DNA of 64,000 nucleotides from Candidatus Altiarchaeales archaeon (GCA_014727915.1 WJMO01000006.1:472762-536761); one strand, 5' to 3'. Positions 2,749-37,177 are shown, counted from the first letter of the stretch. Translations and numbers: made by a program. The notes: generated by a model not told the origin, from the letters alone.

Positions 2749-2755
2749 TTTTTAG

Positions 2756-3439
2756 TCAGTTGCATATGGAGACGTTGGGAGAGTTCTCGCACAATAGCCG
2801 CTCTATCTCGTCCTTGTCCCTGAGGCCGCAGTAGGTGTTCCCCTCTATCACCGTGCACGGGTGCTCGCCCACGCCGTACACTTCAGCCAGAACGTTTACC
2901 GAGGACACGTTCAAGTCCGAGTCGAAGCTGAATATGGCAAGCTCCTCGTCTATCCTCTTGTTCAGGTGGTCTAGGACGTAGGCCTGGTCGTCGCATTGCT
3001 TGCAGTCCTCGCCGCGCCGGTAGAAGTAGAGTATGACCGTCTGGTCTATGTCGCATTTGTCCCGTACCTGGGTGAGAAGCGACAGGTACAGCACTTCCTG
3101 GCGGTTGAACCTCCTCTTCTGCTTCAGGTAGTAGGGGTCTGTCATGTACTCTTCCGTCAGCCGCTTGTAGAGCTCGATCTTGTCGCCTAGCCTCCAGATG
3201 TTCTGGTCCAACAACTCAAGCTGGGACTTCAAAGTGACGCAGGTGGCGTTCTCTCCGAACATGCGCATAAGCTGCGTCAACGCCTCCATCTCCTCCAGCG
3301 TGTCGATGGTGGCCTCCATCCTCGACTCCAGGTTGGCCTCCCGCTTCTCGTTGATGTAGACGTTGATCGAGTATATCACCACAAGGACAAAGACCGTCAA
3401 GACAAGGGCTTTGGCGAATATCCACCTGCTCACCTCCAT
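2756..3439 (-). CDS. Membrane-anchored thioredoxin-like protein with a CKQC motif, between the two GT2 genes
   Basis: N-terminal TM helix, a coiled-coil stretch, then the beta-strand VILYFY followed by CKQC, a thioredoxin-like CxxC context, plus further Cys pairs. Its start overlaps the stop of the upstream GT2 gene (3430-3439). Confidence 0.4.
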   Translation of the reverse strand: MEVSRWIFAKALVLTVFVLVVIYSINVYINEKREANLESRMEATIDTLEEMEALTQLMRMFGENATCVTLKSQLELLDQNIWRLGDKIELYKRLTEEYMTDPYYLKQKRRFNRQEVLYLSLLTQVRDKCDIDQTVILYFYRRGEDCKQCDDQAYVLDHLNKRIDEELAIFSFDSDLNVSSVNVLAEVYGVGEHPCTVIEGNTYCGLRDKDEIERLLCENSPNVSICN

Positions 3440-4677
3440 TTTACCTTCCTCCCCGCGAGGACAGAGTAAAAGGAGCTGAGCCAGAAGAACTGGTAGAGTA
3501 GGAAGAAGAAGATGAACCCTATGAAGCCCGATATGTTCTCCCTGAGCCTCCTGTGCATCACGCTCATGCTGGCCTTGGTCATCAAAGCGATTGACAGCAT
3601 GGAAGACAGCATGAGAAAGTGGAATATGCTAACCGTCAACAGGTCGAAGTCCAATATGTCAAATGGGAGCAGCTCGAAGTTCGTCAGGATCAGGTGTTTC
3701 ACATGCTGGAATATGTTGTTGGCCAATAGCCCGGCCGAGTATACGCCCATCAGCAGGCCCAATGTTATGGTCAGGTAGTTGAGGGGCAGGAAGAAGACGC
3801 CGAAGCAGCCGAGAGCCCGGTTGAACATGGTGTCCTTATGCTGCAGCAGGGTTATGAGGGATCCGCTGTACCACCTCTTCCTCTGCCTGTACAAACCGTT
3901 CAAGGTGGAAGGCACGATTGTGTAGACGCCTGTGTGGAGGGTGTTCTCTATCCTGTAGCCTGCCTTGTGTATCCTAAAGGCTATCTCCATGTCCTCCACT
4001 ATGTTGTGCTCGTCGAAGCCGCCAATCTCCAAGAGCATGGACTTCCGGTAGATGCTGAACGGCCCGGGGGTTACATGCATGGCATTCAGGTAGGAGAGTA
4101 TCTTGAGCGAGAGCGAGAGGCCGACCACGTATTCTATGTCGACTATCCTCTCCAAAAGGTTCCTGGGCTCGCTAACGTGAACGCGGACCGTCACAGCCCC
4201 GACGCCCTCGTCCCGGAACATGCCAACGGTCTTCTTCAATATGTCACTTTTGACCACGCTGTCAGAGTCCATCGTAGCAACATAATCCCCCTTGGCTGCT
4301 TCAATGCCCTCGTTCAGGGAGAACGCCTTCCCATGGTTTTCGCTCCGGTCTATGAAAACCGCCCGCATTTCTTTGTGGGAGGAGATGAAGTCTCTTATGA
4401 AATCAGAAGTCCGATCGGTGCTTCCGTCGTTAACGACTATAACCTCATACCTGCCCCATGGATAGTCCATGTCATAAAGCGACTGAAGGGCCGGTAGAAC
4501 CCCTTTTTCCTCGTTTAGAGCCGGAACTACAACGCTTACAAAGGGCAGGCTATCATCTGGTTCCCCATATGATTTCAGGTCCTCACGCTTCTCAAGCATG
4601 ATCAACAACACCAATGCTATGAAGTAAGTGGACAGGAACCATACGGTCAACGTTAATATGGAATACATCAAATCCAT
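3430..4677 (-). CDS. Family-2 glycosyltransferase, processive synthase type (paralog of 1474-2748)
   Basis: Motifs VVNDGSTDRT, MDSDS and QRKRWYSG (QxxRW), with N- and C-terminal TM segments. First gene of a three-gene minus-strand operon. Confidence 0.7.
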   Translation of the reverse strand: MDLMYSILTLTVWFLSTYFIALVLLIMLEKREDLKSYGEPDDSLPFVSVVVPALNEEKGVLPALQSLYDMDYPWGRYEVIVVNDGSTDRTSDFIRDFISSHKEMRAVFIDRSENHGKAFSLNEGIEAAKGDYVATMDSDSVVKSDILKKTVGMFRDEGVGAVTVRVHVSEPRNLLERIVDIEYVVGLSLSLKILSYLNAMHVTPGPFSIYRKSMLLEIGGFDEHNIVEDMEIAFRIHKAGYRIENTLHTGVYTIVPSTLNGLYRQRKRWYSGSLITLLQHKDTMFNRALGCFGVFFLPLNYLTITLGLLMGVYSAGLLANNIFQHVKHLILTNFELLPFDILDFDLLTVSIFHFLMLSSMLSIALMTKASMSVMHRRLRENISGFIGFIFFFLLYQFFWLSSFYSVLAGRKVKWR

Positions 4678-4756
4678 GGTCTAAAACACTCCCCCGCAAC
4701 CAGCCCACTATATGATTAGCTGATATTATAATAAATAAAGTCTATATATTGGTCTG
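4678..4756. promoter_or_regulatory. Bidirectional AT-rich promoter region (TATA-like elements)
   Basis: 79-bp divergent intergenic region containing ttataataaataaag and tatatatt, between the GT2 operon (-) and the 4757 gene (+). Confidence 0.35.
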
Positions 4757-5329
4757 GTGTCGTCTATGGATGAGGACAGGCTAGAATTTAAGCGGCAGAT
4801 GGTCCATCTATTCAACGGATCGGTCATTGGAGGCCTCGTATACGCCCTAAAGCCCGTATACGGGCTTTGGATACTTGTGCCGCTGGTATTATCGCTTTTC
4901 ATATTGCACGCGGTCCCAAAGCTAACACCGGATTTGAAGGTGGCAAACCACTTATTATACCATTTTGAGCGTCGGAAGGACATAGACAACTTCCCCTTCA
5001 AAGGCGCCATATTCTACGGATACGGGATAATATTCCCAATAGTCCTCTTGGAGACAGAGTATGCGGTCGCAACCATACTCGTTTTGAGCGTTGGAGACGC
5101 CTTCAGCAACCTCGTAGGGAGGAAATATGGGAGGATAAGGATATTAGACAAGAGCATGGAGGGCACGCTGGGTTTCTTCTTCAGCGCATGGCTGGCAGCA
5201 TCCCTGCTAGTTGACCCAACCCACGCGCTCATAATGGCAGCAGTAGCTTCCGTAATAGAACTGTTCAGCTTCTGGGATGACAATATCACAATACCCTTAG
5301 GCCTCTCCCTGCTTGTTCAACTCCTCTGA
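4757..5329 (+). CDS. CTP-transferase-family membrane protein (CDP-archaeol synthase CarS-like or polyprenol/dolichol kinase-like)
   Basis: 190 aa, about 5 TM helices. Motif VLSVGDAFSNLVGRKYGR resembles the CdsA/CarS/dolichol-kinase cytidylyltransferase signature. Confidence 0.4.
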   Translation: MSSMDEDRLEFKRQMVHLFNGSVIGGLVYALKPVYGLWILVPLVLSLFILHAVPKLTPDLKVANHLLYHFERRKDIDNFPFKGAIFYGYGIIFPIVLLETEYAVATILVLSVGDAFSNLVGRKYGRIRILDKSMEGTLGFFFSAWLAASLLVDPTHALIMAAVASVIELFSFWDDNITIPLGLSLLVQLL

Positions 5330-5927
5330 CCCGGACCCTCCGGCCTTCAACGGTTAGCCTGCCCTCAACGTACCATTTCACCGCCTGGGGGTAGATGAGA
5401 TGCTCCTGCTCCAATATCCTGCCGGCAAGACTGTTGACGTCGTCGCCTTCGAGCACGGGAACAGCCGCCTGTACGATTATGGGACCGTGGTCGACTTCCT
5501 CGTCGACGAAGTGTACGGTGCAGCCTGAGACCTTGACACCGTAGTCGAATGCCTGCTGCTGGCCATGCACCCCCGGAAAAGACGGCAACAGCGCGGGATG
5601 GATGTTCATAAGCCTGTCCTTGAAAGCCCTTACAAAATAGGGGGTTATTATCCGCATGTAACCAGCTAGGAGAACCAGGTCAACATCGCGCTTCCCCAGC
5701 TCTTTCACAACTTCCTTGTCGTAGTCCTCCCGCGAAACATATCCGCTGGGGTCCAGGTGAAGGGATTCAATTCCGTGGCTCTCAGCCCGCTCCAACGCGT
5801 AGGCGTCCTTCTTGTCGGATACTACGACGACCACCTGGGAGTCGGGTATCCACCCAGACTCCACATTGTCTATGATGGACTGCAGGTTGCTACCCCCGCC
5901 GGAGGCCAGGACGCCGATTAGGGCCAT
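5286..5927 (-). CDS. purN: Phosphoribosylglycinamide formyltransferase (folate-dependent)
   Basis: N-terminal GVLASGGGSNLQ, a formyl-transferase core, and HPALLPSF-type motifs typical of PurN. Confidence 0.75.
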   Translation of the reverse strand: MALIGVLASGGGSNLQSIIDNVESGWIPDSQVVVVVSDKKDAYALERAESHGIESLHLDPSGYVSREDYDKEVVKELGKRDVDLVLLAGYMRIITPYFVRAFKDRLMNIHPALLPSFPGVHGQQQAFDYGVKVSGCTVHFVDEEVDHGPIIVQAAVPVLEGDDVNSLAGRILEQEHLIYPQAVKWYVEGRLTVEGRRVRVRGVEQAGRGLRVL

Positions 5928-5965
5928 ACGAGAATATTATATGTTGAGTTTTATAATGTGTATGT

Positions 5966-6457
5966 ATGAGGTTACTGGCCGTCCTGGCGCTCGCCCTGCT
6001 GGCCTGCGGGTGCATGACAGGAGCTTCAGAAGAGCCTGTGAAGGTCGTGGACGTGGGCTCTGACCAGGGGAGAGTCGTGGAATCGGTGGTCGAGACTACC
6101 ACAACAACTGTAGAGGTGGCGGAGACGGTCGATACGGCGGAACCCCAGGAAGGCGATGTCATCGAGGTCGGAGACGACGTGGTCATAGAGATAAGACAGA
6201 CCACAACATCAACCACCGCAACTTCAACTACCACAACATCCTCCACTACAACAACCACTACGGATTCCACGACCACAACAACTTCCACGACCACGTCGAG
6301 CACATCTTCGACCACGCTTCCGTGCACCATAGAATGCTATGAGATAGAATACCCCAACCCCAGCAGCTGCGAACGGGGATGCTGCATAAGCGAGAACACC
6401 AGATGCCAGTACATAACCGGCGGACTGAGCCAGGGCGGACGGTGCAGGTGCCGTTAG
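5966..6457 (+). CDS. Secreted Thr-rich (mucin-like) lipoprotein with a Cys-rich C-terminal module
   Basis: Signal peptide ending LLACGC (lipobox-like), a long T/S tract (TTTSTTATSTTTTSSTTTTTT...), and a C-terminal 8-Cys module. Confidence 0.5.
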   Translation: MRLLAVLALALLACGCMTGASEEPVKVVDVGSDQGRVVESVVETTTTTVEVAETVDTAEPQEGDVIEVGDDVVIEIRQTTTSTTATSTTTTSSTTTTTTDSTTTTTSTTTSSTSSTTLPCTIECYEIEYPNPSSCERGCCISENTRCQYITGGLSQGGRCRCR

Positions 6458-7699
6458 AGGTCGATCCTGTCCCTCCACTTCCTTATGGCCTCTCCAGCAA
6501 CGTAGATGGAGCCAGTGATGAGCACTAGGTCGTCCTCGGATGCAATGGACAATGCGTGGTCGACCGCGTCGGACACGCGCTCAACCGGGACGCCGTCCGC
6601 GTGCTTGAGGATTTCGCACGCCCCAAGAGCCCTCTTCAAATCGGCTCTGGTGGCGATGAGCACGTCAGCCTCTGAAAGAAGCCCTATCATGGGCTTGTAT
6701 TCCTTGTCGGACATGAAACCCGCCACCACGACCAGCCTATCGTAATCCAGGGACCTTATGAAAGCCAGGGACTCACGCATACCCGCCGCGTTATGTGCTG
6801 AGTCAACTATTACCCTCGGGTTTTCCCGGACCAGGTCCAGCCTGCCGGGCCAATAGGCCTTCGGGACCGCTGACAGAATGTCACCACGCGTAGTGCCTAA
6901 CTCTTCTGCTGCTGAGACCGCGCAGGCAATATTCAACGCCTGGAAGCCTCCGCGCATGGGAGACCTCAGCACATAGGATTCCCGGCCGGTCTTCATCTTG
7001 AACGAAACACCATCAAGGGAGGACTCGACATCACATAGGACTACATCCCCCCCGACCTTAACAACCCTTGAACCCCGCTCAGCCGCCGCGGAAGATATTA
7101 TGTCCAATGCCTCCCCGGACGCAGCGGTCACAACCACCGACCCGCCGTGGATTATCCCTGCTTTCTCGACGGCGATCTCGCCGACTGTCGAGCCTAGATA
7201 GCTGGTGTGGTCGATCTCGACGTTCGTTATCACCTGGAGCTTCGACTCCACCGCATTGGTCGAGTCCAACCTGCCGCCCATCCCAACCTCCAAGATAATG
7301 ACATCCACGCGCTCGTCGGCGAAATGCTTCAACGCCAACGCTGTGGTGGCCTCGAAGAAAGTGGGCTTGGAGCCCATAGAATCAATATGTGGCTTCAACC
7401 GCCCTGCCAATTCCGCGAACCTCTCCCTGTCGATCTGCACACCATCCACGCGAACACGCTCCGTGAAGTCGATCAACTCGGGTGAAGTGTAGAACCCAAC
7501 CTTCCTGCCCGACATGCGGAGTATGGAATCCAACACACAGGCACAGCTACCCTTCCCATTGGTGCCCGCTATATGGACTATCTCACCGTCGAAACCGAAC
7601 CCCAAAGAATCCAAGAGATCGCGGGTGTTCTCCAATCTGAAACGGTAGCCAAGCCGCTCAAAACCGCGAAGATAAGACAACGCACCCGAGTAGTCCATC
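6454..7699 (-). CDS. folC: Folylpolyglutamate synthase / dihydrofolate synthase
   Basis: P-loop HIAGTNGKGS and a Mur-ligase fold. Start reassigned to the internal ATG at 7699-7697 ([10 protein letters not shown]), which forms an ATGA overlap with the fhs stop. Confidence 0.75.
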
Positions 7700-9356
7700 A
7701 GAACAAACCGCTTATCACACCGTCGTCGTCGATGTCTATCACTTCGGCCGCAGGCCTCCTGGGCAACCCGGGCATGGTCATAACCTTCCCAGTCAACACC
7801 ACGATGAAACCGGCGCCAGCCGACAAATGTATCTTCTTGACCGTTATCTTGAAGCCGTCCGGCCTCCCCAGCAATGTTGAGTCGTCGCTGAGGCTCTTCT
7901 GGGTCTTGCTCATGCAAACCGGGAGCTTGTCCAGGCCCTGGGCCTCCAGCTCCCGGATCTCATTCAACGCCCTCTCAGTGTATGTCACGCCGTCAGCCCC
8001 GTATATCTCCCGGGATATGGCCTCGATCTTCTCCCTAATGGGCTTGCCAGGATCATAGAGGAACCTGAAATCTGACTTTGACTTGGACGCCTTAAGCACT
8101 GCCTCAGCCAGCTCCAAACCGCCGTCGCCCCCCATGGAATGCACCTCCGACAGCGCGCAGTCGACCTTCTTGTCCCTGCACCTCCCCAGCACAAAGTCGA
8201 CCTCAGCGTCCGTGTCAGTGGCAAACCGGTTGACTGCAACAACCAAGGGCACATTGAACTTCAACACGTTCTCTATCTGCTTCTCCAGGTTAGGCCATCC
8301 CTTCTCCAACGCCAGCAAATCCTCCATTTCATATTCGCTGCATCCGCCATGGTGCTTCAACGCCCTCACCGTCGCCACCAGGACGACCGCGTCAGGCTTC
8401 AAACCCGCCTGCCGGCACTTGATGTCGAAGAACTTCTCAGCGCCCAGGTCCGCGCCGAACCCGGCCTCGGTCACGACAACATCCGCCAGCTTCAACGCCA
8501 TCTTCGTCGCCACCACGCTGTTGCACCCGTGGGCGATGTTAGCGAACGGACCGCCATGGATTATGGCAGGCCCGCCCTCCATGGTCTGCACCAGGTTGGG
8601 GTTGAACGCGTCACGCAAAAGGGCGGCCATGGCACCCTGGACCTTCAACTGCTCGACGGTGACAGGGTCGCCGAAGAACGTATAACCAACGACCATCCTG
8701 GCAAGCCGCTCCCTCAGGTCATGGTAGCTCTCAGACAGGCACAACACGGCCATGACCTCGCTGGCGGCGGTGATGTCATACCTGTCCTCCCGAGCCAGGC
8801 CAGAAGAGTCGGCCAAACCGACGAATATGCGGCGGAGGCTCCGGTCGTTCATGTCCGTGACTCGATGCCATCTGACACGGTTGGGGTTGATGTTGAGCTC
8901 GTTACCCTGGAATATGTGATTGTCCACGACCGCGGACAACAGGTTGTTGGCCGCGGAAACCGCGGGTATGTCGCCTGTGAAGTACAGGTTGATGTCCTCC
9001 ATGGGAAGCACCTGACTGTACCCGCCGCCGGCCGCACCGCCCTTGATGCCCATAACAGGGCCGAGGGACGGCTCCCTTATGCACAAAACCGCGTTAACGT
9101 CCTTCTTCCGAAGCGCCTGGGTCAAGCCGACGGTTGTGGTTGTCTTCCCCTCACCCGGGGGTGTGGGAGTCATCGAAGTAACTAGCACCAGCTTACCGTC
9201 CCTGTTCTTCTTCAGCCGCTCCAAGAGCTTAACAGGCAGCTTGGCCTTGAACTTGCCATATGCCATGAGATCATCGGGTTCCAGGCCCAAATCTCCCGCA
9301 ACCTCCTCGACAGGCCTCAGATCAACCGAATGCGCTATCTCAATATCAGATTTCAT
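7698..9356 (-). CDS. fhs: Formate--tetrahydrofolate ligase
   Basis: 552 aa. MKSDIEIA N-terminus and [15 protein letters not shown]-loop, with FTHFS family length and layout. Confidence 0.85.
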
Positions 9357-9427
9357 ATTTGAATAAGAAACAAGGGATGAACGCTTAAAAAGAAAACATA
9401 ATAACTATGCTTTCCATTAGATAGTAT

Positions 9428-11197
9428 ATGGCTGCTACGAGGAGGGTTGAGAGAATAGGATTTGACGGGGATCTGCCCAGGATCATAGCACACCCCGTGG
9501 ACGAGCAGATAGTCGTATTAAGGAACCCCGACGTGCCCTTCAGGAGGGATGGGAAACATGTTGAAGGCCCGGTGGTCATGACCCGCGGGGGCATAGGCTA
9601 CGTCGTCGGCAGCAACAGATTAGACGCCAGGGACGAAAGCCCTGAAAGAGCAGCCGAACTAGTCCGGATGAAGGATAGCATGGACCGGGGGGAGATCACC
9701 ATAACAACACCATATGATATCTACACCGGCGGACTTTTCGGGGACAAGAGCAAACTGGCGATCGTGTTCACAAGCGGGGGGGAAGGGTCGAGCATCGGAG
9801 TCAACAACGCGGAGGTCACACGGGAACTGAGCAGCACACACGTCGTCCTAGGAGCATGGCAGGGCTTCCAGGCAGGGGTGAAGACAACAGAGGAGTTCGC
9901 AAGACAGCTTACCGTGTTAAACGACCCGGCAACCACCGAGAGGATGAGCCGCACGGGAGGCTCCACCCTTGGAATGTCACGCACAAAGGTCAGATTCGAC
10001 TCCGAAAATCCAGAGGACATAGAGGCTGCTGAAAACCTCTTCACCAACGTGCGATACGTGGGCGTAGTATTCGGGAACGGGGGCGGAGACCACACACAGA
10101 ACTTCATGAACTTGTACCTGAAGGCGCAGGCAGAGGGGGCAAGCCAGATTGTCATAGGAGTGACGCCGAAGAGCATGGACAACGACCTGGCAATAAATTT
10201 AAACGACGGGACAATCGCCAACTCACTGATGCTGGGATTCCCAACAACCGCGTATGTTATGCGCCGGCACTTCCTGGACGAGATGCAGAGCGCAGCCGGA
10301 GCAGGACGCGGCACGGTGGGGTTCTTCTTCGGACGCGGAGCGGGATGGACCGTCCTGGGAGCCATAAGGAACGACATGGAATACAGGGAGAATATGCGGG
10401 AGGACGGCATATTGACGGCGGACATGGAGAACAAGATGGACAGCCTCGGACCGCGGACGATAGGATTGGTGCCCGAGTATCCGGTGTCAATACCCTACTT
10501 CGCAGCCTCGATTAACAAAATCTACAACGAGGGTAGCATAGACGGGCAGGGAGGGGAAGTCAGGGACAAGTTCGTCGGAGTCGCAGTATCCGAAGGCTTC
10601 ATGTTCACGGAACTGATCTCCGAATTCGAAAGGCTCACCAGGGAGAGGGAGGAGGGAAGGCTCACTGAAGAAATCGTCATCGAAAAGGTGTCCAGAAACG
10701 ATTTGGAAGACCTGATAGAGGACGAGAACGTCAAGAGGATAATGGGTGAAAACCCGGAGATGGCCAAGAAATTCTTCGAACAAGTGATGAAGCCCAAACT
10801 GGACGTCTGGGAACACCCCAAAGTTGACTTCGGACCCCAGTTCGTGCACGCGGTGATGAACAGCAGCCTAACGGACGTGCCGAAAAACAATTATGCAGAG
10901 ATAAAATACGAGGCGCGCACCGGAGAGACCGTACCCGCCGACCGGGCCCTGGGAGAGGTCACCGGCAGGGTGGAAGCCGAGACTATAAGAGCCGGCAGGT
11001 CGGGGGTGACCACTGTGACTTATGAGGCGGGCGAAGACCCGTTACTGATAGACCCCCGCAAGCGGGGGGCAAGCTTCATACCCTTCGAGGACATAGCCGG
11101 GATGAGCGAAGACCAGAACAACCTAAGGACTTTGGACCCCAACTACCTCAGAAAGCTGGGGATACTCATCGAACCCCATTTTGAGATGCCAGCCTAA
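9428..11197 (+). CDS. Phosphofructokinase-A family protein, divergent long form (possibly PPi-dependent), substrate uncertain
   Basis: PFK motifs recognisable but altered: FTSGGEGSSIGVNNA (for TSGGDAPGMNAA), GNGGGDHT (for GGDGS), PKSMDNDL (for PGTIDNDI), RTGGSTLG, VMRRH (for MGR). Extra roughly 90-aa N-terminal and 200-aa C-terminal extensions. Confidence 0.55.
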   Translation: MAATRRVERIGFDGDLPRIIAHPVDEQIVVLRNPDVPFRRDGKHVEGPVVMTRGGIGYVVGSNRLDARDESPERAAELVRMKDSMDRGEITITTPYDIYTGGLFGDKSKLAIVFTSGGEGSSIGVNNAEVTRELSSTHVVLGAWQGFQAGVKTTEEFARQLTVLNDPATTERMSRTGGSTLGMSRTKVRFDSENPEDIEAAENLFTNVRYVGVVFGNGGGDHTQNFMNLYLKAQAEGASQIVIGVTPKSMDNDLAINLNDGTIANSLMLGFPTTAYVMRRHFLDEMQSAAGAGRGTVGFFFGRGAGWTVLGAIRNDMEYRENMREDGILTADMENKMDSLGPRTIGLVPEYPVSIPYFAASINKIYNEGSIDGQGGEVRDKFVGVAVSEGFMFTELISEFERLTREREEGRLTEEIVIEKVSRNDLEDLIEDENVKRIMGENPEMAKKFFEQVMKPKLDVWEHPKVDFGPQFVHAVMNSSLTDVPKNNYAEIKYEARTGETVPADRALGEVTGRVEAETIRAGRSGVTTVTYEAGEDPLLIDPRKRGASFIPFEDIAGMSEDQNNLRTLDPNYLRKLGILIEPHFEMPA

Positions 11198-11386
11198 CAA
11201 GATTGTCAGGTTAGGTTGTTGGGGTTCCCCTGGCAGTTGACGCCGTTTTTCATGTGTCAAAGCACACTATTTTTTTATTATCACATCACCAACCACAGAA
11301 TTACCCGCGAGCCCACCGTGTGGGCGCGCATCCATCACACTTTAGAGAACCCCAGAATAGCTATGGGAATACAACGATAAAAAGAC

Positions 11387-12931
11387 TTAGTGGAGGAAGC
11401 AGCGCACGCCGGTGAAGACCATGGCCATCCCATGCTCGTCCGCGGCCTTGATGACCTCCTCGTCCCGTATGCTGCCCCCCGGCTGTATGACCGCGGTGAC
11501 GCCGGCTTTCGCAGCCTCGTCGATGCCGTCACGGAAGGGGAAGAAGGCGTCCGACGCCATCACCGAGCCCTTGGCCAAATCCCCCGCCTTCATTGCGGCG
11601 ATCTTCACCGCGTCAACCCGGCTCATCTGGCCGGCCCCCACGCCAACGGTCCGGTCACTGTTTGAGAGGATTATGGAATTGGACTTGGTGTGCTTGCACA
11701 CCTTCCAAGCGAACAGCATGGCCTCTACCTCGTCGTCTGTGGGCTTTCGCTTGCCGACGGCCTTAAGGTCTGATTTCACTAAATCCTTCAAGTCGGTCGT
11801 CTGCAGCAGTAATCCGCCAACGACCCTGCGGACGTCCAATGCGTTCTTGTTGGCCTTCCTTATCTGCCCCACCTCCAACACGCGCATGTTCTTCTTCCTT
11901 TTCAATGTCTCCAACACCTCCTCAGAGTATGCGGGAGCGGCAACCAGCTCGACGAACGTGGAGGTGATGTCCTCAGCGGTCTTCGCATCCGGCTGGCGGT
12001 TCAACGCCACGATGCACCCGAACGCGCTAGTGGGGTCCGCGCTGTGAGCGAGCTCGTATGCTTTGGAGATGTTATCAGCCACACCCACACCAGAGGGGTT
12101 CAAATGCTTCACGATAACGGCTGCAGGGCGGTCGAACTCCTTCACCAGCTCCAATGCGCTGTTGACGTCTATGAGGTTGTTGAATGATAGGTGCTTGCCC
12201 CCCGCGACGAGGCGGGTCTTGGAGACTATTCCTTCCCCGGCGTTGTCATAGTAGTACGCGGCCATCTGATGGGGGTTCTCCCCATAGCGGAGGTCGTATG
12301 CTTTCTCAAGGTTTATGCTGAAATGCTGTGGGAAACTGCCGGGCTCGTACTCCTGACTCAAGTACCTGCTTATCGTCGAATCGTATCTTGCGGTGTGGCT
12401 GAACGCCTTGACAGCCAACGCATTCCTCGTCTCCCCCGAGACGCCCCCGGACTTTCGCATCTCCTCCAATACGAGCCCGTAGTCGGAGGGGTCGGTGACG
12501 ACTGTCACATGCTTGTGGTTCTTGGCAGCTGCGCGGACGAGAGTCGGGCCACCTACGTCTATCATCTCCAACGCATCATCCAAGGTTACATCCTCCTTTA
12601 GAATGGTCTGCTCGAAGGGGTATAGGTTCACCACCACCAGGTCTATGGGCTCGATGACCTGCTCCTTCAACTGGCGCATGTGCTCCCCGCTATCCCTCCG
12701 CGCCAGGATGCCCGCGTGGATCTTAGGATGCAAGGTCTTGACCCGCCCGTCCAGCATCTCAGGGGACTCGGTGACATCAGACACCCTTACGACAGGCAGG
12801 CCAGCATCAGACAACACCTTAGCCGTGCCACCGGACGATATCAGCTTCACCCCGAGCTCATGAAGGCCCCTGGCAAAATCCACAACACCGTCCTTGTCAT
12901 ACACGCTGAACAACGCAGTCGCAGCCTTCAA
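11387..12931 (-). CDS. purH: Bifunctional AICAR formyltransferase / IMP cyclohydrolase
   Basis: 514 aa. MGS-like N-domain (SVYDKDG..LISSGGTAK) followed by an AICARFT domain. Confidence 0.85.
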   Translation of the reverse strand: MKAATALFSVYDKDGVVDFARGLHELGVKLISSGGTAKVLSDAGLPVVRVSDVTESPEMLDGRVKTLHPKIHAGILARRDSGEHMRQLKEQVIEPIDLVVVNLYPFEQTILKEDVTLDDALEMIDVGGPTLVRAAAKNHKHVTVVTDPSDYGLVLEEMRKSGGVSGETRNALAVKAFSHTARYDSTISRYLSQEYEPGSFPQHFSINLEKAYDLRYGENPHQMAAYYYDNAGEGIVSKTRLVAGGKHLSFNNLIDVNSALELVKEFDRPAAVIVKHLNPSGVGVADNISKAYELAHSADPTSAFGCIVALNRQPDAKTAEDITSTFVELVAAPAYSEEVLETLKRKKNMRVLEVGQIRKANKNALDVRRVVGGLLLQTTDLKDLVKSDLKAVGKRKPTDDEVEAMLFAWKVCKHTKSNSIILSNSDRTVGVGAGQMSRVDAVKIAAMKAGDLAKGSVMASDAFFPFRDGIDEAAKAGVTAVIQPGGSIRDEEVIKAADEHGMAMVFTGVRCFLH

Positions 12932-12973
12932 CCTAAAACACCAGTAAAAAACTAAGGACTAACCAGTATAAAA

Positions 12974-13807
12974 CTACTCGACCGCTTGCGCAGCCTTTAA
13001 TGTGTTCTCCAAAAGCATGGCTATGGTCATCGGGCCCGCGCCGCCTGGGACGGGGCTTATGTACGAGCATTTGTCTTTGACTTTCTCAAAATCCACGTCG
13101 CCGACGGTTTCGCTATCTTTTTTCGCCACCCCCACGTCAACGACGACCGCGCCCTCCTTCACCATGTCCTCCTTGATCAGGTGCGGGACTCCCGTCGCAG
13201 GCACGAGTATGTCAGCACGCCTCGTGTGAAACCCTAGGTCTTCTGTCTTCACATGGCAGACTGTCACGGTAGCGAACCGGTTGAGGAACAGCATGGCCAA
13301 CGGCTTCCCCACCACAGTACTATGGTTGACTATCACAACCTCCCTGCCCTCAACAGGAATCTCATACTCGTCCAATAATCTTATCACGCCCTTTGGGGTG
13401 GCTGCTACCATGCGCTCATCACCGGCCATAAGCTCCCCCATGCTCCGGGGGTGGAAGCCGTCAACGTCCTTCGAGTGCGACACCGCGGCTAACACACGGT
13501 TTACGTTGATGTTGTCAGGTAGCGGGAGCTGCACGAGGATGCCATGGACTTCCTTGTCTTTGTTCAACCCATCAATCACAGACAACAGCTCTTCCTCGGA
13601 CACATCCTCGGATAGGTCTCTGCGGACAGAATGAAAACCAGCTTCCCGGCAGGCCCGGTCCTTCATGCCGACATACATCCTAGAAGCAGGGTCACCGCCG
13701 ACGAGGACAGTTGCAAGACCTGGTTTAACGCCAAGTTTAGAGGCTTTCTCCTTCAGCTCGGCCCTTACCCTGGCCGAGACCGCCTTGCCATCCAAGATTA
13801 CAGTCAT
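12974..13807 (-). CDS. folD: Methylene-THF dehydrogenase / methenyl-THF cyclohydrolase
   Basis: 277 aa, [12 protein letters not shown]-terminus and PGGVGPMT motif. Its start ATG overlaps the glyA stop as ATGA (13804-13807). Confidence 0.85.
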
Positions 13808-15051
13808 TTGTAGACCGGAAACTTACTGCAGAGGCTGCCAACCTCCGCCTTCACCTTATCCCTTACCTTCTCGCTCGAGGGGTCCGATAACACTTCGCTT
13901 ATCCAGGAGCCGATCAAGTTCATCTCAGACTCGCCCATACCCCTGACAGTGACCGAAGGGGTGCCAACCCTTATCCCAGAGGTGACGAACGGCTTCTCAT
14001 TGTCGTAGGGTACGGTGTTCTTGTTCAAGGTTATGCCTGCCGCGCCCAACGACTCCTCAGCCAGCTTCCCAGTGAGTCCCTTGTTCGAAAGGTCCGCCAG
14101 AATGAGATGGTTGTCCGTCCCGCCCGACACCAAGTCGAAACCATTATCAGAGAGTGTTGAGGCCATTGCCTTGCTGTTCTTCACCACCTGCTCCATCACC
14201 TTCTTCCTCTCACTTGTCATGTTCTCCTTGAAGCAAACGGCCTTCGCAGCGATTATGTGCATGAACGGCCCGCCCTGACACCCGGGGAAAACCGCACGGT
14301 CAACGTCCTTCGCATGCTCTTCCCGGCACATTATCATCGCGCCCCGGGGGCCCATCAGCGTCTTATGGGTTGTGGTAGTGATATAGTCCGCATATCTCAC
14401 AGGCGACGGATGAACTCCCGCAGCAACCAATCCTGCGATGTGAGCGATGTCCGCCAACAGCAACGCGCCGACGTCGTCGGCAATCTCCCGGAACTCCTTG
14501 AAAGGCACAGTCCTCGGGTAGGCGCTGTATCCGCAGACGATGATCTGGGGCTTCACCTCCCGGGCCCGGGCGAGCACCTCATCATATTCTATCACACCCG
14601 TCTCCTTGCTGACGGTGTAGAACTCCCCCTTGTAGATTTTCCCGGACTCGTTTATTTTGTAGCCGTGACTGAGGTGGCCGCCGTGGCTCAGCTCCATGGA
14701 CAGTATCTTGTCCCCTGGCTTCAACGCCGCAAGATACACGGCAAGGTTGGCCTGGGTGCCGCTGTGGGGCTGCACGTTAACATGATCAGCGCCGAATACC
14801 TTCTTGGCCCTTTCTATGGCCAGGTCCTCAACCAAATCGACGTTCTCACAACCCCCATAGTATCGCTTATGAGGATAACCTTCAGCGTACTTGTTGGTCA
14901 TCACGGAAGAGCATGCCTCGCGCACCGCCTGCGATGTGAGGCTCTCCGAGGCTATGAGGTTTATGCCCTCCTGCCGCCTCTCCTCCGCCCCTATAGCCTC
15001 CAAAACCCGGGGGTCAACCTCCGCCAAACTCCTGTAAAACGAAACGTCCAT
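13804..15051 (-). CDS. glyA: Serine hydroxymethyltransferase
   Basis: PLP-fold SHMT motifs ([27 protein letters not shown]). Start placed at the internal Met (MDVSFYRS); the ORF as given begins 15 codons earlier, at 15096. Confidence 0.8.
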
Positions 15052-15212
15052 GAGGATACAATATATGGGACCCATATTATAATAAAAACAGGACAAAACC
15101 GGATTTCACAATAGTTTAAACAATTATATGAACTATTAAAAGGAAAACAGGTATAATTCAAACAAAGACAAGCCTTATATTGCCATCCTCCCTACTACTA
15201 TAAGCTGTTTCT

Positions 15213-15293
15213 GGGCCTGTAGCCTAGCGGATGCTGCTCACATGCGTTCGCGCAGACGAAACTGCAACAGCAGTCTAGCCTAAGGCGACAGCC
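15213..15293 (+). repeat. Partial direct copy of the tRNA-Arg 5' half (positions 1-20 and 21-32) interrupted by a 49-nt insertion carrying a UUCG hairpin
   Basis: GGGCCTGTAGCCTAGCGGAT ... AAGGCGACAGCC matches nt 1-32 of the downstream tRNA. The insert (15233-15281) contains TGCG-TTCG-CGCA and a GCTGCT/AGCAGT stem. A TATA-like cttatatt lies about 35 nt upstream. Confidence 0.5.
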
Positions 15294-15326
15294 CAAAATA
15301 GAAAACATAGAAGGAAGCACATTCAC

Positions 15327-15478
15327 GGGCCTGTAGCCTAGCGGATAAGGCGACAGCCTTCTACGAGCCCCTTTCTTTTAAAAAAAGAAAGGTGCTTCAC
15401 CCCCAAAGAAAAAAATAGGGTGGTGAGGAAGGGTTCGGGGATAGCTGTAGATCATGGGTTCGAATCCCATCAGGCCCA
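15327..15478 (+). tRNA. tRNA-Arg (anticodon TCT) with a 79-nt intron at the canonical 37/38 position (intron 15364-15442)
   Basis: Hand-folded cloverleaf: acceptor GGGCCTG/CAGGCCC, D-arm GCCT-AGCGGATA-AGGC, anticodon stem ACAGC/GCTGT with loop CTTCTA|A, 5-nt variable loop, T-arm ATGGG-TTCGAAT-CCCAT, discriminator A, no encoded CCA. The intron holds a perfect 9-bp hairpin CTTTCTTTT-aaa-AAAAGAAAG. Confidence 0.7.
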
Positions 15479-15490
15479 CAAGAATTTTTT

Positions 15491-16966
15491 ATGTTGGGGT
15501 TAAGGGGTTTTATTTCCATCATTTTAATCCCTAATATGCGCTTATGTTGTCTGATAGTCCTTATCCTCATTTTCTCAGGCTGTATGGGAGGATATGACAA
15601 AACAGAAGAATCAAAGCCAGACAATTATTGTGAAACCGATCGAGATTGCAGCCCTCTCGGATGTTGTTGTCCTAAAAAATGTACGGGTTCAGTATATGCC
15701 AGCCAGTACTATTATGAAAACTGTAAAGGGAAACCCTGTCCAGAAGTAGTATGTAACCCTGTTGTGACATGCACTTGTGAAAATAACATGTGTAAAACAC
15801 ACAAAGATAGTGTATTCAAAAAAACCACTTCATCAACTCAATCCACCACGACAACTTTGAAGATTGGGACTGATTATTCTGAACTAATCCACATGTATAC
15901 TGACAAATTCGACTCAAACAGTTCTATAATCAAATGCCAAAATGATGATGACTGTATCTTAGTCCCAAATATTGGTAGTTGTAATGCTGGTGGCATAAAT
16001 ATAGCCATCAATAAGGATTTCCAAGAGGGGTGGAACAAGCAACTAAATGAAGAACGTAGAGGGATGGTGTTTGCAGGAGTCATGTCGCAGCATTCATCAT
16101 GTTTCTCAAATCCAGTTTGTAACGATAATAAATGCACGACTGAGATTAACAATACAATGATTTGCAGTCAACAGGATATTCGTGGAAACTGTGAAAATCC
16201 TGCATATGCGAATAACTGGAAAAAGGAACTGGGTATACGATGTGAAGATCTTAATGCAATATGTCAGTGGGGGATAGGGAATATCAATGCATCAGACTTC
16301 ATAAATTGGGATGAGAACTTCGGGTCGTGGGGGGATGAATACGGGACATTCATCCAACTTAGAGATTTTAGCGGATATGAGTACGACCTAAACTCCTCGG
16401 TGGACGAAAAATTAAAGGTCTACGCATTACGTCGTGAGAAAAGCAGGAATATATCAAAGGAGTTCATAGCTTTCCTGAAGCAGTTGGATGTGAGTATAGA
16501 TGAGGATAGGAGTTTCGGGAAGATAATGGTTGTCGGAGGACGAAAAGATGACATGCAAAAGGTCATCTTCCACCCCTATGTCGAGTCATATTCCAGAGAT
16601 AACCCGGGATTCCCGGAGGATATTTTCACAGAAACTGAGCTGAAATATTGCATGACTGATGATGACTGCATAAGTATTGAAGCATATAGGAATGGATGTA
16701 CGGCCGGTGGGACATCAATACCCATGAATAAAAAATTCAAGGAGTATTGGACCGATAAGAGATTGTCAGATACTCTTTTTACAGGAACTACTGGGGTGCT
16801 ATCCTTCCATTGGTCCTGTTTTGCAATCCCAAAATGTCTGAACCATAGGTGTGCATTAGTCAATACAACGTGTTCAAGTCCTGAGGATTGTGACGGAGGA
16901 TACTACTACGAAAAGTTCAGTGAAGGAATAATATGCAAAGACAATAAATGTTATGGGGATATTTAG
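15491..16966 (+). CDS. Cys-rich secreted (lipo)protein with two internal roughly 70-aa repeats (CxxDDDC...AGG...NK.F.E.W...SCF..P.C module)
   Basis: Signal peptide with an FSGC lipobox-like motif. Paired segments CQNDDDCILVPNIGSCNAGGINIAINKDFQEGW... and CMTDDDCISIEAYRNGCTAGGTSIPMNKKFKEYW.... N- and C-terminal Cys knots. Low-GC codon usage. Confidence 0.5.
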   Translation: MLGLRGFISIILIPNMRLCCLIVLILIFSGCMGGYDKTEESKPDNYCETDRDCSPLGCCCPKKCTGSVYASQYYYENCKGKPCPEVVCNPVVTCTCENNMCKTHKDSVFKKTTSSTQSTTTTLKIGTDYSELIHMYTDKFDSNSSIIKCQNDDDCILVPNIGSCNAGGINIAINKDFQEGWNKQLNEERRGMVFAGVMSQHSSCFSNPVCNDNKCTTEINNTMICSQQDIRGNCENPAYANNWKKELGIRCEDLNAICQWGIGNINASDFINWDENFGSWGDEYGTFIQLRDFSGYEYDLNSSVDEKLKVYALRREKSRNISKEFIAFLKQLDVSIDEDRSFGKIMVVGGRKDDMQKVIFHPYVESYSRDNPGFPEDIFTETELKYCMTDDDCISIEAYRNGCTAGGTSIPMNKKFKEYWTDKRLSDTLFTGTTGVLSFHWSCFAIPKCLNHRCALVNTTCSSPEDCDGGYYYEKFSEGIICKDNKCYGDI

Positions 16967-17086
16967 GCTTCAAAAAAGGTTCTATTTTTGTCTAATAGTT
17001 GTTCCAGACTAACTTATAGTGACTATATATTGCAATAATCTATATTATAGATATCGAGAAAAATTATATATTGTAAAAGATATATT

Positions 17087-18256
17087 ATGAAAAGGAGTGA
17101 TTTTCCAGCCCCAAATGGCAGGTTTTCAAAGAATTCCGATGGAGACCTTACATTCATCCCAAACAGGATAATCCGGGATATTGAGGGACTATACTCTTCG
17201 GAGATAGTGAGCCTTCTTTCAAAGGCTGACAGGATGCTTGGTTCCCTGGACCGGTGTAGTCAAAGCGACCCGAACATTGACTTCCTCGTCGCGCCCTACA
17301 TACGGCTCGAGGCTGTCGCGAGCTCAAGAATCGAGGGGACTCAGACAACTTTAACGGACTACTACAAGCTGGAGGCAGAAAAGAAAGGGGAACACGACCC
17401 GGACTATATCGAGGTCAACAACTACATCAAAACGATGATGGCAGGCTTTGAGAGGGTCATTGGCGGACAAAAAATCGACCTCCCCTTCGTCAAATCACTT
17501 CATAAGACCCTTGTAGCGGGAAGCGAGCGCACAAAGGGGGTTCCCGGCCATGTCAGGACGAAACAGAACTGGATAGCCCCCATGAACTCGCCGATAGAGC
17601 TTGCGACATATGTCCCACCAGATCCAATTAAACTGGAGCCCCTGCTAAAGGATATGCAAGGATTCATCCTGAAAGACGATGACATCCCGCCGCTCATAAA
17701 GACGGCATTGATACACTATCAGTTCGAGGCGATACACCCGTTCGAAGACGGAAATGGGAGGGTCGGGAGAATCATCAACTCCCTCTACCTCGGCCAGGCA
17801 GGATGCCTCCACAGCCCGATCCTGTTTTTGAGCTTCTATTTCCAAAAGCACAGGGACGAATACTGGGCGAGGTTGTTGAGGACCAGCCAGCAAAGCGACT
17901 TCGACGGATGGCTTAGATTCTTTTTGAAGGGCATTATAGAGCAATCGCAAAGGTCTATAGAGCTTTCAAACAAGATAGAAGGGTTGCATACCAGCTATCA
18001 GGAACGTCTTGAGAAAAAGAGGGTCACAGCGACCACATTAAAGGCTTTGAGGCTGCTTTTCACAGGCAACCCATTCGTGTATATGACCGAGCTTGCAAGG
18101 GAGCTGGACGTCCATCTTCCGACGGCAAAGAAGGCGATAACACAGCTTGAGAAAGAAGGCATCCTGAAGCAATCAAAGGTCAAAAAGCCAGCAATCTACT
18201 TCGCCCCCGAGATAATAGATACATTACGGAAGGCTGAAAAGGAAATGCTCAAATAA
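17087..18256 (+). CDS. Fic/DOC family protein (probable AMPylator) with a C-terminal winged helix
   Basis: Canonical Fic motif HPFEDGNGRVGR (HxFx[DE]GNGRxxR). 389 aa. Confidence 0.8.
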   Translation: MKRSDFPAPNGRFSKNSDGDLTFIPNRIIRDIEGLYSSEIVSLLSKADRMLGSLDRCSQSDPNIDFLVAPYIRLEAVASSRIEGTQTTLTDYYKLEAEKKGEHDPDYIEVNNYIKTMMAGFERVIGGQKIDLPFVKSLHKTLVAGSERTKGVPGHVRTKQNWIAPMNSPIELATYVPPDPIKLEPLLKDMQGFILKDDDIPPLIKTALIHYQFEAIHPFEDGNGRVGRIINSLYLGQAGCLHSPILFLSFYFQKHRDEYWARLLRTSQQSDFDGWLRFFLKGIIEQSQRSIELSNKIEGLHTSYQERLEKKRVTATTLKALRLLFTGNPFVYMTELARELDVHLPTAKKAITQLEKEGILKQSKVKKPAIYFAPEIIDTLRKAEKEMLK

Positions 18257-18522
18257 CGCTCACAAGGACGCAAAAAAGGGAGTACGTACTGGTGGGGTGG
18301 TCAGGCATCAGGCCCGCATCAAATTAGATTAGACCAGGGGTTCGAACGCTCGGAAACCGAAGGTTTCCGGCGCGCCAAAATCCGCAGGCTTTTGAGCGTC
18401 CCATCAGGCCCGATACAGGATAATAATTGGGTGAGTGTTTGCTTGAGGCCGAAACACACTTTTTTTCCGTTGGAAAAAACCGACCCAGCTGGCGCAGGGA
18501 ATAAAGACCCGAGTCAGGTGTG

Positions 18523-23444: not shown

Positions 23445-23473
23445 CCTTAACCGACTAGCTCGGATTTAAGGTT

Positions 23474-24334: not shown

Positions 24335-24369
24335 ATTATTATATTTGTCTGATTCCTAAATTTTATATT

Positions 24370-24840: not shown

Positions 24841-24874
24841 AAGGCTTTTATAGCTCGTTTTCTATAATGCTTTA

Positions 24875-37170: not shown

Positions 37171-37177
37171 GATCAAG

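Follow-up and report, generated by a model that had tools for sequence, protein, structure and literature searches.

A Predicted Tetrahydrofolate One-Carbon and Purine Gene Cluster, Probably Inherited within Its Lineage, in an Uncultured Altiarchaeales Archaeon

Results

The 64-kb stretch of DNA analyzed here (the window) carries a real but ordinary folate one-carbon/purine gene set of an uncultured Altiarchaeales archaeon. We consider it probable (roughly 80%) that this cluster is a biosynthetic tetrahydrofolate (THF) one-carbon (C1) module inherited within the Altiarchaeota and that any interdomain transfer behind it was ancient.

All six genes that the earlier note had named (purN, folC, fhs, purH, folD, and glyA) were upheld by HMM search, and all six lie on the minus strand (Table 1). 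Curated cutoffs were exceeded for every family except folD, whose membership holds at the family level only: the catalytic domain (135 bits) and the NAD(P)-binding domain (209 bits) both scored above the Pfam gathering scores, with the NCBIfam equivalog models below cutoff (best, 375 versus 437). The Fhs match spans residues 1 to 552 of 552. PurH (protein record MBD3388668.1, 100% identity) carries both of its domains, the MGS/IMP cyclohydrolase domain (PF02142, residues 15 to 130) and the AICAR formyltransferase domain (PF01808, residues 135 to 448). FolC also matches Mur_ligase_M and Mur_ligase_C but is distinct from MurC to MurF, whose models score at most 86 bits against cutoffs above 200; FolC orthologues of 414 and 427 amino acids were called in relatives. 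PurN is distinct from PurU and Fmt, whose models score far below their own cutoffs, and shares 66% and 46% identity with its orthologues in loci L001 and L081, respectively.

Membership of GlyA in the serine hydroxymethyltransferase (SHMT) family is supported by its NF000586 score, and the best-matching solved structures score 472 to 511 bits (5vmb, 511; 1kkj, 506; 1dfo, 472). We take 1kkj and 1dfo to be bacterial THF-dependent SHMTs. The best PDB matches of FolD score 250 to 301 bits, compared with 186 bits for 3ngl; the former are presumably bacterial FolD enzymes and the latter the Thermoplasma enzyme. The span given earlier for the cluster ended at 15096, a TTG, but glyA most likely starts at the ATG at 15051, which gives a protein of 415 amino acids, as in the identical public record. 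An A/T-rich, TATA-like stretch precedes this ATG.

Table 1. Features of the folate cluster and PurP paralogs, with positions counted from the first nucleotide of the window
Feature	Product or description	Length (aa)	Position	Strand	Evidence or placement
glyA	Serine hydroxymethyltransferase	415	13804-15051	Minus	PF00464, 520 bits; NF000586, 603 versus cutoff 335
folD	Bifunctional methylene-THF dehydrogenase/methenyl-THF cyclohydrolase	277	12974-13807	Minus	PF00763 (catalytic), PF02882 (NAD(P)-binding)
purH	Bifunctional AICAR formyltransferase/IMP cyclohydrolase, TTG start	514	11387-12931	Minus	NF002049, 731 versus cutoff 402
PFK-like gene	Divergent phosphofructokinase-like, outside the folate module	589	9428-11197	Plus	Between fhs and purH
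fhs	Formate-tetrahydrofolate ligase	552	7698-9356	Minus	PF01268, 842 bits; NF010030, 842 versus cutoff 652
folC	Folylpolyglutamate/dihydrofolate synthase, from ATG 7698	414	6454-7698	Minus	TIGR01499, 313 versus cutoff 163
146-aa ORF	Putative gene	146	5890-6330	Minus	Between folC and purN; without family match
purN	GAR formyltransferase, uses 10-formyl-THF	213	5286-5927	Minus	PF00551; TIGR00639, 245 versus cutoff 150
Small ORFs (two)	Conserved	91 and 94	4726-5289	Minus	Directly downstream of purN
purP1	Divergent PurP paralog	386	22284-23444	Plus	DUF1246, DUF1297
purP2	Paralog nearest the characterized formate-dependent FAICAR synthetase	360	24875-25957	Plus	DUF1246, DUF1297

The cluster had been described as a compact module. 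The six genes are indeed grouped, but they are split by the plus-strand gene between fhs and purH and by the 146-aa ORF. The plus-strand protein gave only weak NCBIfam PPi-PFK matches (1e-9, residues 112 to 311) and no match in a Pfam search; its homologue in locus L085 (26% identity) carries PF00365, and relatives hold other inserts at the purH/fhs junction. At the position and strand of the 146-aa ORF, a gene of 150 amino acids is called on a relative's contig, and a rival plus-strand ORF (5966-6457), with low-complexity matches only, competes with it. The two small ORFs beyond purN (91 and 94 amino acids) share 54% and 52% identity with the ORFs at the same position in L001; a family search gave no matches for either.

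Transcribed from the same strand, purH begins 42 nt downstream of folD, and the stop of glyA overlaps the start of folD in the ATGA at 13804-13807 that the earlier note had reported; the same 4-nt overlap is found in locus L081 of Altiarchaeales ex4484_96. A second ATGA, placed at 7697-7700 between folC and fhs, does not exist, as the plus strand there reads ATCA. The genes run in the order fhs then folC, not folC-fhs, and their junction on the minus strand is TGATG (7696-7700), a one-base overlap with the stop at 7700-7698 and the ATG at 7698-7696. The glyA/folD and fhs/folC overlaps are compatible with translational coupling, but this signal is generic, since 4-base start/stop overlaps are common in the window (purN/orf91, orf286/orf169, and AAA/radical-SAM). 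Judged only from gene spacing and A/T-rich, TATA-like stretches, there are probably two or three transcription units: glyA-folD(-purH), fhs-folC, and purN with the two small ORFs.

Both PurP paralogs claimed for the window are present, and they share 33 to 36% identity. The purP2 product scores 395 bits against Methanocaldococcus jannaschii PurP (2r7k), 303 bits against Pyrococcus furiosus PF1517, and 489 bits against NF009783 (cutoff, 590), while that of purP1 scores 228 bits against 2r7k and 302 bits against NF009780 (cutoff, 556). Because both fall below the NCBIfam equivalog cutoffs, PurP activity is a prediction from sequence for the two paralogs, especially for purP1. In L085, the gene directly downstream of purH is an orthologue of purP1 (74% identity). 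The suggestion of two formylation routes is borne out to the extent that folate-dependent (PurH and PurN) and formate-dependent (PurP) enzymes co-occur in the window.

The surroundings of the cluster are archaeal, as had been supposed, with an intron-containing tRNA, TiaS, GatD, deoxyhypusine synthase, Nre, and a split pheT (window scan; PMC4975002). The runs glyA-folD-purH and fhs-folC-purN recur in similar order on independent contigs of Altiarchaeota, with identities of 46 to 81%, and matches to GlyA, PurH, and Fhs apparently co-occur on about 10 or more contigs. Locus L001 reads glyA-folD-purH-(4.6 kb)-fhs-folC-purN-orf91-orf94-GT2-x-GT2; L081/L082 of Altiarchaeales ex4484_96 reads glyA/folD-purN-purH-folC; L085 reads glyA-x-folD-purH-purP-x-purP-DnaG-AAA; L089, beside archaeal ribosomal protein genes, reads fhs-x-folC-folP-x-purN-x-GT2-x-GT2; and a JGI contig reads purH-(9 kb)-fhs-x-folC-x-purN-x-GT2.

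GlyA, PurH, and Fhs each have their nearest homologues in the Altiarchaeota, and about 27 proteins (64 to 100% identity) make up the Altiarchaeota-specific clade to which Fhs belongs. Each of the three has a 100% identical counterpart in a public Candidatus Altiarchaeales metagenome-assembled genome, where Fhs is annotated as formate--tetrahydrofolate ligase. The earlier note had held that the cluster would be ordinary if its proteins grouped firmly with the host lineage and the genome lacked H4MPT genes; the first of these, grouping with the host lineage, was found for these three proteins, together with the recurring gene order. In a neighbor-joining tree of GlyA, drawn without support values, the Altiarchaeota sequences do not form one clean clade. 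Outside the Altiarchaeota, the nearest homologues of the three proteins are bacterial, at about 55 to 65% identity. FolD proteins encoded beside bacterial fhs genes are 34 to 51% identical, compared with 58 to 60% for Altiarchaeota FolD. GC3 and codon usage, which the earlier note had proposed to compare, revealed no deviation: GC3 is 0.68 to 0.78 in the six genes and 0.68 ± 0.08 in other genes of the window (Mann-Whitney P = 0.11), and the codon-usage distances of the six are typical for the window.

Is the cluster an import from bacteria, as had also been proposed? A recently acquired island, set in an archaeon that otherwise relies on H4MPT and PurP, is highly improbable. Such an origin would fit the nearest relatives outside the Altiarchaeota, which are bacterial for Fhs (55 to 65% identity, the named matches being Bacillota among others), come from Hippea, WOR-3, and Hydrothermae for GlyA (61 to 64%), and for PurH belong to a group (55 to 57%) whose one sampled member sits on a bacterial contig; it would also fit the scores of FolD, which are lower for 3ngl than for the best-matching FolD structures in the PDB. 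It is contradicted, however, by the typical composition of the genes, by the lack of integrase, transposase, or other mobility genes at the cluster borders, and by several independent Altiarchaeota contigs, among them those of the hydrothermal Altiarchaeales ex4484_96, that keep the gene order with orthologues as distant as 46 to 63% identity. Moreover, distant Altiarchaeota sequences are at least as close as the nearest bacterial ones. The same genes occur in similar order in related archaea, and therefore the cluster is not a recent import. What survives of the proposal is an ancient interdomain origin, with which the bacterial relatives are compatible: since these lie nearest beyond the Altiarchaeota and the module is lineage-wide, any transfer would be ancient, and since the enzymes are of bacterial sequence type, it would predate the diversification of the sampled Altiarchaeota. 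The chance that assembly or binning joined a bacterial fragment to an archaeal contig is negligible. Bacterial-like enzyme sequences in a metagenome-assembled genome could suggest such a chimera, but archaeal genes lie on both sides of the cluster inside the window, composition is uniform, and contigs assembled separately from different samples show the same purN-GT2, purH-purP-DnaG, and fhs/archaeal ribosomal protein junctions.

Discussion

The sequence shows which genes are present, how they overlap, to which lineage they belong, that their synteny is conserved, and that their composition is homogeneous; the cofactor specificity, operon structure, and physiological role of the module are inferred. 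Judged by the known activities of these enzyme families, the C1 pool would be anabolic, fed from serine (GlyA and FolD) or from formate (Fhs), and would supply purine steps 3 and 9. GlyA would load the hydroxymethyl group of serine onto THF to give methylene-THF, which FolD would oxidize to 10-formyl-THF, and Fhs would form 10-formyl-THF directly in an ATP-dependent loading of formate onto THF. In building the purine ring, 10-formyl-THF would be spent at step 3 by PurN and at step 9 by PurH, through its AICAR formyltransferase domain; the N-terminal PurH domain would then cyclize FAICAR to IMP, and FolC would add glutamates to the cofactor. The PurP paralogs may provide a parallel, folate-independent formylation of AICAR from formate and ATP, beside which ring closure may still need PurH. 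That the cofactor is folate itself is suggested by FolC and, in L089, by FolP; none of the pterin/pABA biosynthesis genes folP, folE, folK, and pabAB was found in the 64-kb window.

Can the module reach beyond biosynthesis, into the fixation of carbon or the assimilation of formate? In that case Fhs, FolD, and a MetF from another part of the genome would make up a bacterial-type THF methyl branch leading to CODH/ACS. This branch would either replace the H4MPT branch put forward in published work or run in parallel with it. Archaeal CODH/ACS is normally methylated from H4MPT or H4SPT. We regard this alternative as unlikely. The presence of fhs, in a conserved Altiarchaeota-specific clade and adjoining other THF genes, speaks for it, as do the published core genes of Altiarchaeales, which include 5,10-methylene-THF reductase, CODH/ACS, and a bacterial-like NADP-dependent MtdA (PMC4975002); furthermore, activation of CO2 by way of formate, which Fhs would make possible, is reportedly beyond the H4F enzymes of Methanosarcinaceae and ANME-2 (PMC9012536). 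Yet fhs is linked to folC, purN, and purH, a biosynthetic neighborhood, and the ORFs of the window that were scanned include those for Fhs and FolD but no metF, acsE, cdh (CODH/ACS), or fdh. Two C1 carriers in one archaeon are plausible, because Altiarchaeales are described with a modified H4MPT Wood-Ljungdahl pathway (PMC4500143, PMC4975002, PMC8407392), and the arrangement is already documented in Methanosarcinaceae and ANME-2 (PMC9012536, PMC3261824). It would be a long shot that Altiarchaeales have a complete bacterial-type THF formate route with real flux to CODH/ACS or to the serine/glycine pool and a PurP pair that works with PurH. If so, their modified archaeal Wood-Ljungdahl pathway would be a THF/H4MPT hybrid, and the purH-purP-purP link in a relative would reflect an enigmatic PurP pair acting alongside PurH, not replacing it. 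A use of tetrahydromethanopterin or some other modified pterin by these enzymes, which would make the folate label an annotation artifact, is very unlikely: the best GlyA structure matches are 5vmb and 1kkj, of which 1kkj is presumably bacterial and THF dependent, and no M. jannaschii SHMT is among the 60 matches listed (lowest, 316 bits). H4MPT-specific versions of GlyA do exist, MtdA can use either carrier (PMC9012536), and H4MPT-pathway genes have been reported in the lineage (PMC4500143), but FolC (above the TIGR01499 cutoff) and Fhs belong to folate-specific families, L089 has a Pterin_bind/FolP gene within the cluster, and PurN and PurH need 10-formyl-THF in all characterized cases (PMC3261824).

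The nearest known parallel to the biosynthetic THF module that we favor comes from Methanosarcinaceae and ANME-2, which have an H4F gene cluster and in which an anabolic H4F pool stands beside a catabolic H4MPT pool (PMC9012536). In Methanosarcinaceae and ANME-2a/2b/2d/3, this anabolic cluster is given as metF-metV-folP-folD-glyA-purN (Buchenau and Thauer 2004, as cited in PMC9012536). Shared with it are the clustering of THF-specific FolD, THF-type GlyA, and PurN (the cofactor being predicted here), all three within 9.8 kb on one strand in our case; a host lineage that reportedly also has an H4MPT-type C1 pathway; and a presumed role in supplying C1 units from serine to purine synthesis and other biosynthetic pathways. 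The present cluster differs in including fhs (formate entry), purH, and folC and in missing metF, metV, and folP, none of which was seen when ORFs in or near 3430-16966 were scanned, whereas L089 has folP in its cluster. The host belongs to another phylum, and its relative L085 links the PurP pair physically to purH. In addition, cofactor specificity was biochemically tested in Methanosarcina barkeri, whereas for the Altiarchaeales cluster it is predicted from sequence.

Bacterial fhs-folD pairs, which in Bacillota serve the Wood-Ljungdahl methyl branch or general C1 metabolism, resemble the module in Fhs, which is 55 to 63% identical to the retrieved bacterial homologues, most of them from Bacillota. 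Many of the retrieved bacterial fhs loci have folD immediately downstream of fhs; here, in contrast, folD is paired with glyA, the host is an archaeon, and no acs, metF, or fdh lies nearby. As for purine formylation, the window resembles archaeal PurP-based, folate-independent last steps (M. jannaschii PurP I; PurP II/III pairs; PMC6486802, PMC3261824) in having two PurP paralogs, of which purP2 is close to the characterized M. jannaschii enzyme. Most archaea with PurP II and III are without PurH/PurV (PMC6486802), whereas here a full-length PurH coexists with the PurP pair, and in L085 purH lies directly upstream of the pair. For this combination, too, there is a precedent in the Methanosarcinales, where a full-length PurH occurs with PurN and, as a rule, with two PurP-like genes (PMC3261824).

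Results

ORF listing and HMM scans of the window identified six minus-strand genes of folate-dependent C1 and purine metabolism (table below), in agreement with the annotations proposed in an earlier note on this DNA. That note had described a compact cluster with ATGA start/stop overlaps at two gene pairs. The overlap at 13804-13807 is present, with the glyA stop codon lying on the folD start. The ATGA claimed at 7697-7700 is absent: the minus strand reads TGATG, the fhs stop (7700-7698) and the folC ATG (7698-7696) share one base, and the order is fhs followed by folC rather than folC-fhs. The glyA start had been placed at 15096, but ATG 15051 is the most likely start, since the resulting 415-aa product agrees with the length of an identical public protein. 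The cluster is also broken by a plus-strand gene encoding 589 aa, and a 146-aa ORF without assignment (orf146) sits between folC and purN. Apart from one overlap, one start codon, and cluster contiguity, the earlier observation was largely correct. Several further gene pairs in the window have 4-nt start/stop overlaps as well; such overlaps are a general habit of this genome and no special mark of the cluster.

Features of the window discussed in the text (bit scores with family cutoffs in parentheses)
Feature	Coordinates	Strand	Remarks
GT2-x-GT2	1474-4677		conserved glycosyltransferase block, after orf91/orf94
orf91 + orf94	4726-5289	-	91 aa, 94 aa; downstream of purN; 52-54% identical in L001
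purN	5286-5927	-	TIGR00639, 245 bits (150)
folC	6454-7698	-	TIGR01499, 313 bits (163)
fhs	7698-9356	-	NF010030, 842 bits (652)
589-aa gene	9428-11197	+	weak PPi-phosphofructokinase similarity
purH	11387-12931	-	NF002049, 731 bits (402); two domains, both present
folD	12974-13807	-	two Pfam domains, both matched
glyA	13804-15051	-	NF000586, 603 bits (335)
tRNA	15327-15478	+	Rfam, 59.6 bits
low-GC stretch	15468-18325		directly after the tRNA
orf491	15491-16966		GC 0.40, GC3 0.40; no family match
Fic/DOC protein	17087-18256		winged-helix domain at C-terminus
purP1	22284-23444	+	228 bits to M. jannaschii FAICAR synthetase
purP2	24875-25957	+	395 bits to M. jannaschii FAICAR synthetase
RNR large subunit	35029-37170		ATP-cone type
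corrinoid adenosyltransferase	37070-37759		CobO-type
NrdD	52724-54928		anaerobic; followed by an archaeal Nre protein
PheT fragment	58898-59692	+	264 aa; B1 and B3_4 domains only
289-aa ORF	62365-63234	-	GC1 0.84, GC3 0.56; no family match

TATA-like A/T-rich stretches lie roughly 24-35 nt 5' of the start codons of glyA, fhs, and purN; although these are a matter of resemblance only, they suggest that the cluster may be transcribed as two or three units, with short leaders. The only match of the 589-aa protein covers residues 112-311, and Pfam gave none; its homologue in the related locus L085 (577 aa, 26% identical) carries PF00365. Lenient Pfam and NCBIfam scans matched orf91 and orf94 to no known family and returned nothing usable for orf146, orf491, or the two ORFs between the purP genes (orf286 and orf169).

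The window is archaeal in context, as seen in its tRNA, two PurP genes, a DnaG-type Toprim protein, deoxyhypusine synthase, GatD, TiaS, and Nre. The tRNA gene, detected by Rfam and missed by ARAGORN, has an anticodon-loop insertion of ∼80 nt, read as an intron, and a UCU (Arg) anticodon, read from the alignment. The short N-terminal fragment of the PheRS beta subunit (PheT) is consistent with the split pheT described as characteristic of Altiarchaeales (PMC4975002). A MAG contig of 536,761 bp in NCBI encodes proteins 100% identical to GlyA, PurH, and Fhs of the window: the PurH is MBD3388668.1, and the Fhs bears the name [quoted passage not shown] The window is assigned to Altiarchaeales. Elsewhere in the window are two ribonucleotide reductases, one with an ORF that overlaps the corrinoid adenosyltransferase ORF and the other an anaerobic NrdD.

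With identities falling from 100% to about 58-64%, the best GlyA, PurH, and Fhs homologues form graded series whose members are labelled Altiarchaeota wherever the source names an organism and many of which share contigs. By gene order, which is conserved with variations, the module is made up of a glyA-folD-purH block and an fhs-folC-purN block, both conserved, with a variable junction between them that in the window is occupied by the 589-aa gene.

Gene order at related loci
Locus	Gene order	Remarks
L001 (Altiarchaeota MAG)	glyA-folD-purH-[4.6 kb]-fhs-folC-purN-orf91-orf94-GT2-x-GT2	colinear with the window as far as coordinate 1474
L081/L082 (Altiarchaeales ex4484_96)	glyA/folD, then purN-purH-folC	GlyA 63% identical; same 4-nt glyA/folD overlap
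L085	glyA-x-folD-purH-purP-x-purP-...-DnaG-AAA	GlyA 81% identical; single strand
L089 (Altiarchaeota MAG)	fhs-x-folC-folP-x-purN-x-GT2-x-GT2	adjoins archaeal ribosomal protein genes
JGI contig	purH-[9 kb]-fhs-x-folC-x-purN-x-GT2	9 kb includes a restriction-modification gene

Beyond Altiarchaeota, the nearest sequences are bacterial. Those of Fhs are 55-65% identical (named matches mostly Bacillota), and GlyA is 61-64% identical to proteins of Hippea, WOR-3, and Hydrothermae. PurH is 55-57% identical to a large group of 519-aa proteins, whose taxonomy was inferred from gene context (the contig of the one member sampled carries YkuD, Mur ligase, and DAP epimerase genes); a 58%-identical match is located on another archaeal contig. 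In the PDB, the leading FolD entries, which we take to be bacterial enzymes, scored 250-301 bits, versus 186 bits for 3ngl, presumably the Thermoplasma FolD; the best solved GlyA structures include 1kkj and 1dfo, also presumably bacterial. A rough neighbor-joining tree of the top 120 GlyA matches, without support values, contained three Altiarchaeota-labelled groups, one of which adjoins a bacterial group. As judged from these similarities, the module enzymes are of bacterial type. A Korarchaeota-labelled GlyA (locus L083, 10001-11275; 68% identical) was placed within the Altiarchaeota series and stands by itself, without the cluster, in a neighborhood of peptidase and hydantoinase genes; its placement could reflect archaeon-to-archaeon transfer or mis-binning.

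Were these genes imported, and if so, when? Composition gave no sign of foreign origin: the six genes have GC3 values of 0.68-0.78, against a mean of 0.68 (SD, 0.076) for the other 40 genes (Mann-Whitney P = 0.11), and their codon-usage distances are typical. With this composition and a gene order kept in independent Altiarchaeota contigs, we rejected both a recently acquired island and an assembly chimera. The horizontal acquisition from bacteria raised in the earlier note is thus tenable only as an ancient event, in keeping with the bacterial type of the enzymes; any transfer would predate the split of the sampled Altiarchaeota from one another. The module is a known kind of housekeeping unit, conserved in the lineage, and was annotated before in a public MAG.

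The sole compositional outlier near the cluster is the region just beyond the tRNA, a low-GC stretch that holds orf491 and a Fic/DOC protein and may be a small integrated element. The tRNA 3' end, CATCAGGCCC, is repeated at 18306, and a repeat of 10 nt could occur by chance. The 289-aa ORF, odd in composition, may encode a low-complexity protein or may not be a real gene.

The claim of an archaeal folate module beside PurP was borne out, with the six genes and two PurP paralogs in one archaeal window. The paralogs share 33-36% identity, fall under the NCBIfam equivalog cutoffs, and each have a separate orthologue in L085; purP2 is the closest to the characterized M. jannaschii FAICAR synthetase, and purP1 is more distant. 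In L085 (14816-17758), the PurP pair comes immediately after purH, in the same orientation; DnaG and an AAA/Mg-chelatase-like ATPase follow it, as they follow the pair in the window (22284-25957). Conservation does not extend to the ORFs between the two purP genes, which are orf286 (weakly methyltransferase-like) and orf169 in the window and a single 190-aa ORF in L085. Methanosarcinales have full-length PurH and PurN and typically two PurP-like genes (PMC3261824). Since PurH is missing from most archaea that have the PurP II/III pair (PMC6486802), a direct link of the type purH-purP-x-purP, as in L085, is mildly unusual.

Discussion

On established enzymology, GlyA would load C1 units from serine onto tetrahydrofolate (THF or H4F), FolD would convert methylene-THF to 10-formyl-THF, and Fhs would add a second, ATP-consuming entry for formate. 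PurN (purine step 3) and PurH (step 9, with ring closure) would spend the 10-formyl-THF, and FolC would maintain the polyglutamylated cofactor. The window showed no folP; in L089, a Pterin_bind (FolP-like) gene (13793-14602) directly follows folC, and its position inside the cluster points to folate itself as the probable cofactor. With Fhs as the formyl source, the folate and PurP routes both consume formate and ATP, and serine is an additional C1 source for the folate route. Putative parallel or condition-dependent formylation routes are a reasonable reading, and the purH-purP-purP linkage in the relative offers a natural test system for the role of the uncharacterized PurP paralogs.

Could the folate pool also serve carbon fixation? 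In published reconstructions, the Wood-Ljungdahl pathway of Altiarchaeales is a modified H4MPT (tetrahydromethanopterin) version that includes a bacterial-like MtdA and a gene resembling methylene-THF reductase (PMC4500143, PMC4975002, PMC8407392). The presence of Fhs and FolD in a group reported to have MetF makes it worth asking which pterin is the C1 carrier in the Altiarchaeales acetyl-CoA pathway. Acetyl-CoA synthesis could conceivably be fed by a THF methyl branch, because Fhs opens the THF pool to formate, but we consider this unlikely because the gene neighborhood is biosynthetic.

Our search of the literature on Altiarchaeum or Altiarchaeota and folate found no paper on this module. 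The analysis settles the annotation and lineage of the window, and it shows that uncultured, reportedly autotrophic Altiarchaeales have a conserved folate C1/purine module with formate entry through Fhs. The pterin and PurP leads are modest and do not overturn current knowledge: the coexistence of folate and H4MPT pools, and of PurH with PurP, is already documented in archaea. Methanosarcinaceae and ANME-2/3 provide the nearest precedent with their H4F gene cluster, metF-metV-folP-folD-glyA-purN; in these archaea, H4MPT is the catabolic carrier, and an H4F pool fed from serine supplies the synthesis of purines, of thymidylate, and possibly of methionine (PMC9012536). Unlike that cluster, the Altiarchaeales cluster lacks metF and metV and adds fhs, purH, and folC; the two have folD, glyA, and purN in common.
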